Assembly: GCF_003018255.1 (NCBI RefSeq)
Contig: NZ_CP027440.1
DNA length: 64,000 nucleotides
Origin: Escherichia coli
GTDB lineage: Bacteria > Pseudomonadota > Gammaproteobacteria > Enterobacterales > Enterobacteriaceae
Reading direction: 5' to 3' (one strand)
The first letter of the stretch is position 1. Each line of letters begins with the position of its first letter. Below the pieces are notes generated by a model. The model did no database searches. It was not told the DNA's origin and was given only the letters and a program-made list of their open reading frames with translations. Below, piece after piece: positions 29,443 through 30,308 of the stretch. The position numbers were made by a program, and so were the translations under genes.

Positions 29443-29469
29443 ATGAGCGGAAAACCAGCGGTATACTAA
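29443..29469 (+). other. Vestigial rhs 5' end (8-codon remnant MSGKPAVY*)
   Basis: atgagcggaaaaccagcgg matches the rhs start at 24803 (atgagcggaaaaccggcgg) at 18 of 19 nt, then diverges to a stop. Confidence 0.6.
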
Positions 29470-29518
29470 GGCGATGCCATGTTGAAAGATAGTCCAATAG
29501 TCTAAAGTGGAGAACTCA

Positions 29519-29782
29519 ATGAAGCAAACCGGACGAGGCTTGCTTAACAGTCCTGGAGCAACCAATAGAAAACCTAATGGTATACGTTTAGTACCGTCAG
29601 CAAATACAGAAACGTATAATCGTGATGGATTTTTAACACATAGTTGTTTAAACGCTTTTGGTCCATCTTTAGGACCTCGATTCTGTTCCGAGGGTTGTAT
29701 AACTGGTTCATCTAATGACATGCAAAAATTAAATGAGCTAATATTTTCAGAGCCAGATAGCACATTAACAGTGACGGACTAG
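29519..29782 (+). CDS. Hypothetical small protein (candidate orphan toxin/effector module)
   Basis: 87 aa from the ATG at 29519 (GGAG RBS); the ORF-track frame starts at a GTG at 29507; lies just after the rhs-start remnant; no recognisable motif. Confidence 0.4.
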   Translation: MKQTGRGLLNSPGATNRKPNGIRLVPSANTETYNRDGFLTHSCLNAFGPSLGPRFCSEGCITGSSNDMQKLNELIFSEPDSTLTVTD

Positions 29783-29786
29783 AAAT

Positions 29787-30308
29787 ATGGCAAGGTTATT
29801 AACAATTGTGCTTTTTTTCTCTATTTCTGCGAATGCAGTTACTGTAAACCAATTTCAGAGAGAGTTGGATTTGGCAGACAAGACAATATTATGGGCACTA
29901 ATATCAGCCAGTACCCAAGAGGGACGAAAAGCGTGTTCACTTAGCTATTTTTCATGTAAAGCCGCAGAGGCTGAACTCGGACTGGCATATATGGCTGCTA
30001 ATGATAACAAGGCATTTCTCACATCCTTATCTAGAATAATGATGTACAAAATAGATGCTGGACTTTCCGAATCCTATACATGCTATTTATTAAGCAAGGG
30101 AAAGATCATAAGACCATATCTGAAGAATCTAAATCCACACCAACTTGTCGCTGATTGCATTGAAACTGTAAATAAAATAAAAGATAAAAATAAAAAAATC
30201 ATTGATATAGATTCAGTTAATATTTGTAATGATAATAAAAATATAAATTGGAGAGTTAATAGTACTATTGTAGCCATTGACGATTCTATAAAATGCATCG
30301 ATGAATAA
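29787..30308 (+). CDS. Hypothetical secreted protein (candidate orphan immunity protein)
   Basis: 173 aa, signal peptide with ANA cleavage site (MARLLTIVLFFSISANA), cysteine-containing, AT-rich; tightly coupled to the preceding ORF. Confidence 0.5.
   Translation: MARLLTIVLFFSISANAVTVNQFQRELDLADKTILWALISASTQEGRKACSLSYFSCKAAEAELGLAYMAANDNKAFLTSLSRIMMYKIDAGLSESYTCYLLSKGKIIRPYLKNLNPHQLVADCIETVNKIKDKNKKIIDIDSVNICNDNKNINWRVNSTIVAIDDSIKCIDE

Follow-up and report, generated by a model that had tools for sequence, protein, structure and literature searches.

The window, a stretch of 64,000 nucleotides of Escherichia coli DNA, covers the E. coli rhsA locus and is 100% identical to strain JNE23-011 over the tested stretch. 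Its genes are arranged in the order selB, selA, yibF, a 4.1-kb rhs gene, a low-GC tail, yibH, yibI and mtlA. Past position 28400, behind the GC-rich core of the rhs gene, GC content falls from about 0.6 to between 0.3 and 0.4. Read from the rhs gene, the tail contains a candidate immunity gene, a remnant of a second rhs start, a truncated Tlde1 tip (Tlde1′), an Imm57 gene and a fragment of an ISAs1 element that is followed by yibH (Table 1). The tip of the main rhs gene gave a weak Pfam match to Peptidase_M91 (E 9e-4). The gene itself is frameshifted in the source strain by a 5-nt GCCCT duplication near 24995-25004; the insertion is seen relative to both K-12 and ACN002, and RefSeq labels the twin gene in JNE23-011 'frameshifted'.

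Homologues of the 136-aa protein encoded next, the candidate immunity protein for the metallopeptidase tip, were found solely in Escherichia albertii, at 67-71% amino acid identity. Their genes stand alone at the ends of vgrG-rhs arrays, and DNA homology with these E. albertii loci stops at 29424, just beyond the stop codon of the 136-aa gene. At the far end of the tail, the translation of the ISAs1 fragment is recognisable yet interrupted by stops; with this fragment, ahead of yibH, the Rhs element ends on the right. An NCBIfam scan of five proteins returned no family besides the Rhs core-end.

Table 1. Positions of the rhs gene and of the features that follow it in the window.
Feature	Position	Strand	Details
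Main rhs gene, RhsA locus	24803..28950	+	From ORFs; PAAR-type N-terminus MSGKPAARQGD..., YD-repeat core
DPLGL motif of main rhs gene	28534-28548	+	Motif coordinates
133-aa tip of main rhs gene	28549-28947	+	HEMGH at 28831-28845
Candidate immunity gene of the metallopeptidase tip	29008..29418	+	136 aa; hydrophobic N-terminus; ORF
Decayed rhs 5′ end	29420..29502	+	Leader of 23-24 nt, ATG at 29443, about 20 codons
Mini-ORF within the remnant	29443-29469		ATGAGCGGAAAACCAGCGGTATACTAA; 8 codons and stop
Probable extension of the decayed rhs 5′ end (codons ~21-38)	29503..29548	+	Contains GGAG and the ATG that opens the 87-aa ORF
GGAG ahead of the 87-aa ORF	29509-29512		6 nt before the ATG at 29519
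87-aa ORF	29519-29782		
3′ half of an Rhs tip, Tlde1/DUF2778 (L,D-peptidase-like)	29549..29782	+	Last 76 codons and stop of the 87-aa ORF
Intact Imm57-family immunity gene	29787..30308	+	173 aa; Pfam PF15596; RefSeq annotation; Sec-type signal peptide
Decayed internal fragment of an ISAs1 (H-repeat) transposase gene	30471..30700	+	79% nucleotide identity over 232 nt to an ISAs1 copy in L022

The rhs start remnant

A preliminary description of this DNA had noted an 8-codon remnant whose first 19 nt match the rhs start at 18 positions, and our alignment confirmed it: the first 19 nt of the mini-ORF (29443-29461) differ from the start of the resident rhs gene (24803-24821) by one mismatch. When up to three mismatches are allowed, these two sites are the only places in the 64 kb that match the 19-mer, and shuffled sequence leads one to expect 0.04 matches. 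This expectation, together with an extended alignment that includes the leader, ruled out a chance or common motif as the source of the 19-mer.

The homology to rhs starts extends well beyond the mini-ORF and begins one base past the stop codon (29416-29418) of the 136-aa gene. When 5426 complete E. coli genomes were searched with high sensitivity, 29420-29502 hit the beginnings of intact 'RHS element core protein' genes with about 75% identity. In the alignment with rhs 5′ regions that the preliminary description had proposed, the same interval reached a local score of 61 against the rhs start of ACN002, compared with 16.3 ± 2.2 for shuffled sequence; this lies about 20 standard deviations above the shuffles, and the alignment takes in a leader of 24 nt as well as 20 codons. 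The remnant reads MSGKPAVY*GDAMLKDSPIV*, compared with MSGKPAARQGDATMKGGPIV in the reference, and its stops at codons 9 and 21 correspond to two Gln codons, now TAA. The remnant ORF does not continue into a PAAR domain or a YD-repeat core, and no core sequence follows it. Because the first 60 coding nucleotides are identical to the ACN002 start at 47 positions, and likewise to the start of the second rhs gene of strain D8, but to the resident rhsA start at only 37, the remnant derives from a non-resident rhs N-terminal type (GDATLKGGPIV). The proposal that this scrap is the footprint of another rhs 5′ end is supported by these alignments, and the footprint, a leader and about 20 codons, is longer than had been claimed.

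About 22% of the remnant's positions have changed, the two stops among them. At 10 sites the remnant departs from two intact references that agree with each other, and each of these changes is a G:C>A:T transition. C>T and G>A changes are interleaved, a pattern that ruled out a kataegis-like, strand-coordinated cluster of mutations at the breakpoint. The changes are unevenly spread: the first 19 nt are untouched, whereas the following 41 nt carry 13 changes, and post hoc arithmetic based on the rate in those 41 nt gives P ~0.003 for finding no change at the 11 G/C sites of the 19-mer. The 19-mer may have stayed intact through patchy conversion by other rhs starts or because the start region is under selection. 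Downstream, 29503-29548 shows a weak collinear match to nucleotides ~89-113 of the ACN002 rhs gene that 0 of 500 shuffles reached but that is not significant against references other than ACN002; on this alignment the remnant may reach as far as about 29548.

The truncated Tlde1 tip and Imm57

Behind the remnant, the preliminary description had placed an 87-aa ORF preceded by GGAG and a tightly coupled, secreted protein of 173 aa, and both were found as described, with a gap of 4 nt between the stop codon of the first and the start of the second. Family alignment revealed a chimeric 87-aa ORF: the joint supplied its first 11 codons, and the other 76 encode the C-terminal end of a tip that is about 145 residues long when complete. 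The remnant and this toxin half are in different frames, and homology to the orphan modules of HS-02 and K-12 begins mid-tip, at about 29549. In the profile searches that had likewise been suggested, the 87-aa ORF matched Pfam PF10908 (Tlde1_dom) with E 1.1e-3 over model positions 66-107 of 120. The complete HS-02 allele matched the same model with E 2.2e-7 over positions 10-106, and 8 of the 11 aligned members of the tip family matched it at E<=0.001. These matches indicate that the window carries a fragment of a PF10908 member, not a complete member. The fragment contains THSCLNAFGPSLGPRFCSEGCI, in which H-x15-SEGC-I fits the motif H-x(14-17)-(S/T)HGC-h but for an E in place of the second H; the His, the Cys and the residues around them are invariant in the 11-sequence alignment. 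The half that bears the nearly invariant ASGNNG, CKNNP and RGPIPxGxW motifs is missing.

Orphan modules normally keep a piece of core-end homology, as the preliminary description pointed out, and the same orphan does so in HS-02, K-12 and AST240. In HS-02 and AST240, the same DNA supplies the 3′ portion of a gene annotated as 'tlde1 domain-containing protein', and this gene lies between an Rhs core-end fragment and Imm57. A DPxGL (PxxxxDPxGL) core-end precedes the complete HS-02 and K-12 alleles but is absent ahead of the tip fragment in the window. Complete Tlde1 alleles stand behind a DPxGL Rhs core-end not only in E. coli but also in Ralstonia and in a protein from an Acidobacteriaceae MAG. 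We considered a PAAR-Tlde1 fusion gene broken in place and rejected it, since complete alleles put the tip after the Rhs core-end and not after PAAR. The joint is flanked by a GTCCNGG-like similarity between rhs codons for CPGG (TGTCCGGG...) and Tlde1 codons for GPGA (GGTCCTGGAG); this microhomology of 6-8 nt is suggestive only. AlphaFold2 modeled the complete Tlde1 allele with a pLDDT of 60 from the 11-sequence alignment, and a Foldseek search of the PDB gave noise only; phmmer against PDB sequences found no meaningful match for the complete Tlde1 allele or for Imm57. The 87-aa product is probably inert, neither deliverable nor able to reach peptidoglycan, because it has no Rhs shell, PAAR domain or signal peptide and only half of the catalytic domain. 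Annotations should not list the 87-aa ORF as a gene.

The 173-aa protein, which RefSeq names 'Imm57 family immunity protein', matched PF15596 with E 5.4e-44 from residue 30 to 127, covering model positions 2-100 of 100. It begins with MARLLTIVLFFSISANA, which we read from the sequence as a signal peptide ending before a V, and the product is predicted to be periplasmic. Imm57 adjoins the Tlde1 fragment in the window and complete tlde1-domain genes in HS-02 and AST240. The suggestion that the two ORFs are a displaced effector/immunity pair is supported by the combination of a PF10908 fragment with a full-length PF15596 domain. It holds for Imm57, which is intact, but not for the 87-aa ORF as an intact gene, which consists of an 11-codon joint and a 76-residue tip end. 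The alternative offered alongside it, that the ORFs are unrelated cargo, was not borne out: they belong to Pfam toxin and immunity families, and full alleles of the toxin are fused to the Rhs core-end. Imm57 is likely the part that selection has kept, as an orphan immunity gene whose product, exported to the periplasm, would neutralise the Tlde1-type L,D-peptidase tips that relatives inject by means of a T6SS. The gene is frameshifted in K-12 and AST240, and selection for it is therefore not universal.

The Tlde1/Imm57 region was detected in 3683 of the 5426 complete E. coli genomes (~68%), K-12 and O157:H7 among them, and it was the last module before yibH in every locus inspected. Far from being an unusual insertion, it ends the rhsA locus more often than any other module. 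Its presence at the same spot in about two thirds of complete E. coli genomes is consistent with orphan immunity being kept as a defence against relatives that attack with a T6SS. The 5′ half of the tip was found in 3667 E. coli genomes; among 60 rows sampled from these, there was no full-length rhs gene with a Tlde1 tip, and all were annotated fragments. The truncated joint occurs in 180 genomes only, and the same 180 carry the metallopeptidase tip and the 136-aa gene. A metagenome scan recovered the exact remnant in three contigs, with the same joint in all, and in one of them, metagenome contig L019, other modules precede the whole block, which has itself become an orphan and retains 480 nt of core. 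As seen from the joint common to all 180 carriers and from the displaced block in L019, the metallopeptidase-tip block moves as a unit.

Stranded rhs starts and the origin of the joint

Comparison with other Rhs loci uncovered related arrangements. Strain D8 has a second, frameshifted rhs gene of about 4.5 kb in tandem behind the immunity genes of the first. In the E. albertii locus L010 (5895-6523), a leader and about 60 rhs start codons, with a stop among them, lie behind a Sel1 gene and are followed by a distal-core piece of ~240 nt (~80 codons), a truncated Ntox28 tip and a CdiI_3 gene; this eroded rhs gene looks to have been caught part-way through erosion, in an intermediate state. Shorter scraps were also found. 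The K-12-type rhsD locus has a 32-codon rhs start fragment, beginning ISGKPAARQGDMPQYGGPIVQGSAG..., in 2799 of the 5426 genomes. This fragment stands after rhsD, ybbC, an orphan and small ORFs, and we take it to occupy the ylbI position, between ybbD and ylbG. In contig L018, a 13-codon rhs start lies behind an immunity gene. A scan of GTDB genomes for the leader and start together returned no matches, and a looser one returned only two misbinned, Escherichia-like MAG contigs, one with a K-12-type rhsD locus and the other, L018, with the new 13-codon remnant just described. The D8, rhsD, L010 and L018 cases lead us to conclude that tandem rhs genes exist and that their starts survive as scraps. 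The evidence indicates that stranded rhs starts recur and that at least some orphans therefore have the wreck of a once complete tandem gene in front of them. Deletion in full-length genes that stand in tandem is thus one route to orphan arrays, beside tip displacement.

For the window, we tentatively favor, at a confidence somewhat short of probable, a reading in which a dead rhs start travelled with the metallopeptidase-tip/immunity block and was joined illegitimately to the resident Tlde1-Imm57 orphan. A second rhs gene would once have begun in tandem directly behind the 136-aa immunity gene, 24 nt after it, and nearly all of it would since have been lost. Its start, by then a decaying pseudogene, would have moved with the block. 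Illegitimate deletion or recombination, possibly at the GTCCNGG similarity, would then have joined the block to the resident terminal Tlde1-Imm57 orphan, removing the orphan's core-end and N-terminal half together with any intervening orphans. We prefer this course of events because the remnant is ~22% decayed, whereas the neighboring Tlde1′/Imm57 DNA shares 98.9% identity with the complete HS-02 allele from about 29545 onward; on this argument the remnant would be older than the joint.

Some observations do not sit easily with a travelling dead start. The donor search via the 136-aa immunity protein returned only stand-alone E. albertii copies that are not followed by the remnant, and no donor locus was found in which the 136-aa gene precedes an intact rhs gene; the GTDB scans likewise contained no intact source gene with the remnant's leader. 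The argument from age would fail if the Tlde1′/Imm57-yibH side had later been homogenised by ordinary homologous recombination. The short microhomology and the weak alignment of 29503-29548 are further weak points. Uniform neutral decay does not explain why a perfect 19-mer stands beside heavily decayed codons.

It is possible, though on the unlikely side, that a single gene and a single deletion produced the joint, a full second rhs gene with a Tlde1 tip, situated behind the metallopeptidase tip and its immunity gene, having lost the roughly 4 kb between codon ~38 and mid-tip. Such a gene could have begun with a crossover between an incoming tandem rhs gene and the core-end of the resident orphan, which would have 'resurrected' the orphan. 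No account is more economical for a start fragment that abuts a tip fragment without filler DNA, and the pieces that it needs occur elsewhere: the E. albertii L010 locus is such an rhs gene eroded by internal deletions, with start, core piece and tip fragment left; D8 has the tandem second gene; and full-length fusions of DUF2778 to the C-terminus of Rhs proteins have been reported in Shigella sonnei (WP_052983304.1; bioRxiv 10.1101/2020.02.18.954545; PMC9638812). Against it, the disparity in decay between the remnant and the adjacent tip half would call for later homogenisation up to the joint, the two parts are in different frames, and the rows sampled from the 3667 genomes included no full-length rhs gene with a Tlde1 tip.

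We regard it as very improbable that the leader, ATG and mini-ORF have been retained as functional elements, either as an upstream ORF or ribosome-loading site for the Tlde1 fragment and Imm57 or as a patch of homology for recombination. The unchanged 19-mer ahead of 41 heavily altered nucleotides would suit such a role, as would the identity of leader and 19-mer to the K-12-type rhsD-locus remnant at 37 of 40 positions and the GGAG spaced 6 nt before the ATG of the 87-aa ORF. Genomic SELEX, moreover, identified a constitutive sigma-70 promoter upstream of ylbI, the position of the rhsD remnant in K-12 (PMC3946193). However, a scan of 28900-30800 for promoters and terminators found neither in excess of the shuffle expectation, and no promoter-like site fell at the remnant. 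The leader is kept for only 24 nt, the stop of the mini-ORF 50 nt before the next ORF does not provide a geometry for coupling, and the contrast in conservation is a post hoc one over 60 nt. Although the Tlde1′/Imm57 region, always beside yibH, is near-universal, there is practically no likelihood that a random or common motif explains the 19-nt match and that the two ORFs are core genes or unrelated cargo, given the 0.04 matches expected, the extended alignment with its leader, the specific Pfam matches to toxin and immunity families known to pair and the full alleles fused to the Rhs core-end.

A more general proposal strikes us as unlikely: that stranded rhs starts are a systematic class of footprint and that many Escherichia orphan modules come from complete tandem rhs genes eroded by internal deletions, not all from tips displaced by core-fragment circles. 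Under this proposal, leader and 19-mer might be kept by conversion among rhs starts and would offer a second, 5′ homology handle for rearrangement.

Comparison with known Rhs and Tlde1 systems

The pairing of Tlde1-type L,D-peptidase toxins with Imm57 is already known: Tox-LD-peptidase toxins with RHS repeats and T6SS delivery have been listed with Imm16 and Imm57 (Zhang et al., 2012; PMC3482391). The module in the window resembles the Salmonella SPI-6 pair Tlde1/Tldi1 (Tae5/Tai5), an L,D-carboxy/transpeptidase and its immunity protein, in its PF10908 domain and His...Cys motif (H-x15-SEGC), in its likely periplasmic target and in having a Sec-signal immunity protein encoded beside the toxin. 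Work on Tlde1/Tae5 described the His/Cys motif and found toxicity in the periplasm only (bioRxiv 10.1101/2020.02.18.954545; PMC9638812). Unlike in Salmonella, where the immunity protein is a DUF2195 protein, immunity is of the Imm57 family here; the toxin is an Rhs tip and not a stand-alone cargo effector, only half of its domain is left in the window, and E replaces H in the published (S/T)HGC motif.

Dissociated, or 'orphan', Rhs tips and immunity genes downstream of full-length rhs genes are the basis of the C-terminal displacement model (Jackson et al., 2009; PMC2935791). The module in the window is like those orphans in its type of locus, its orientation, its low-GC tail and the order of tip and then immunity gene. 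In K-12, HS-02 and AST240, the Tlde1/Imm57 tip is also the last module, and a core-end fragment precedes it there. In the window, by contrast, the orphan has neither its core-end nor its N-terminal half, and a fragment of an rhs start precedes it instead. A circle that excises a core fragment and a tip predicts a start behind the immunity gene only if it forms between two full-length tandem rhs genes. A circle of that kind is compatible both with the joining of a travelling block to the resident orphan and with a deletion within one gene.

The remnant also resembles other stranded starts. The fragment at the K-12-type rhsD locus is likewise an rhs leader and start stranded after orphan modules and the small ORFs that follow them. 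It differs in its locus and N-terminal subtype and in being less decayed (32 readable codons, with an ATG>ATT start), and it is truncated next to the IS-related ylbG fragment, whereas the remnant in the window is fused to a toxin tip. E. albertii L010 shares with the window the succession of immunity gene (Sel1), rhs leader and start, truncated tip (Ntox28) and immunity gene (CdiI_3), but some 60 codons of the start and a piece of some 80 codons of the core survive there, and its toxin and immunity families are different ones. All components of the window's array are of known kinds, namely an Rhs array, an LD-peptidase tip with Imm57 and pseudogene scraps, and the recurrence of stranded rhs starts is a modest addition to the existing model of how Rhs arrays grow.

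The main rhs gene and its metallopeptidase tip

In the main rhs gene of the window the 5-nt sequence GCCCT is duplicated in tandem (GCCCT GCCCT). Sequence comparison found this duplication in neither K-12 rhsA nor the ACN002 rhs gene, and it shifts the reading frame of the main rhs gene after about codon 64. The window strain probably cannot produce an Rhs metallopeptidase toxin of its own; in other strains bearing the same tip, this gene is intact. The match of the current tip to Peptidase_M91 (Pfam) is weak (E 9e-4). In the searched set of complete E. coli genomes, the metallopeptidase tip was always accompanied by the downstream 136-aa gene and by the window's joint, the out-of-frame junction of the start remnant with the C-terminal half of a Tlde1 tip (180 genomes).

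Coordinates of the features in the window and in the comparison loci
Feature	Sequence	Position	Content
Main rhs gene	Window	24803-28950	
GCCCT duplication	Window	24995-25004	Within main rhs gene
Current tip	Window	28549-28947	HEMGH zinc-peptidase motif at 28831-28845
136-aa candidate immunity gene	Window	29008-29418	
Compared part of start remnant	Window	29443-29502	
ISAs1 (H-repeat) transposase gene, internal fragment	Window	30471-30700	Between Imm57 and yibH
Eroded rhs gene	L010, E. albertii GCA_032539325.1	5895-6523	Leader and ~60 start codons, ~240 nt of distal core, 57-aa Ntox28 fragment; then CdiI_3 immunity gene
Tandem rhs pair	L014, E. coli D8, rhsE locus	7019-14115	vgrG, rhs, ankyrin immunity gene, small ORF, second rhs
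rhsF array	L022, E. coli ECSC054	4247-9660	yibJ-type tip (main tip), yibG, core-end, Tlde1 tip
Displaced block	L019, metagenome contig OATN01000854.1		480 nt of core, metallopeptidase tip, immunity gene, start remnant, Tlde1 half, Imm57

The candidate immunity gene, the start remnant and the right edge

In E. albertii (loci L006-L013), DNA homologues of the 136-aa candidate immunity gene are approximately 80% identical to it and stand solitary, lacking a cognate tip, as the terminal gene of vgrG-rhs arrays. The arrays that end in these homologues occupy two different chromosomal sites. Judged from these homologues, the 136-aa gene is a putative travelling orphan immunity gene. Decay of the start remnant behind it is uneven: the first 19 nt of the compared part are unaltered, while the following 41 nt are heavily altered. 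Each of the 10 substitutions specific to the remnant is a G:C>A:T transition, and the C>T and G>A changes are intermixed along it. The right boundary of the Rhs element is marked by the ISAs1 fragment, which comprises about 77 codons interrupted by stops and has 79% DNA identity to an ISAs1 copy.

Movement of modules between Rhs loci

E. coli ECSC054 has an rhsA locus arranged as in the window, and its rhsF locus (rpmE...yiiX) bears a K-12 rhsA-type array, so that Rhs loci evidently share modules. This rhsF array is truncated within its Tlde1 tip by an ISAs1 element, and Imm57 is absent there. In the metagenome contig the entire block, from core to Imm57, sits 3' of approximately 4.4 kb of other modules; the present main tip of the window has therefore been displaced in another strain. 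Escherichia-like Rhs loci were also found in GTDB MAGs labelled Alistipes and Collinsella (contigs L017 and L018). Because both loci are of this type and one is 99.6% identical to a K-12-type rhsD locus, sequence comparison indicates that these MAGs contain misbinned contamination.

Tandem and eroded rhs genes elsewhere

An rhs gene shrunk by several internal deletions is found in E. albertii, and a tandem pair of rhs genes at the rhsE locus of E. coli D8, where the second gene, of about 4.5 kb, is frameshifted and has an internal stop.
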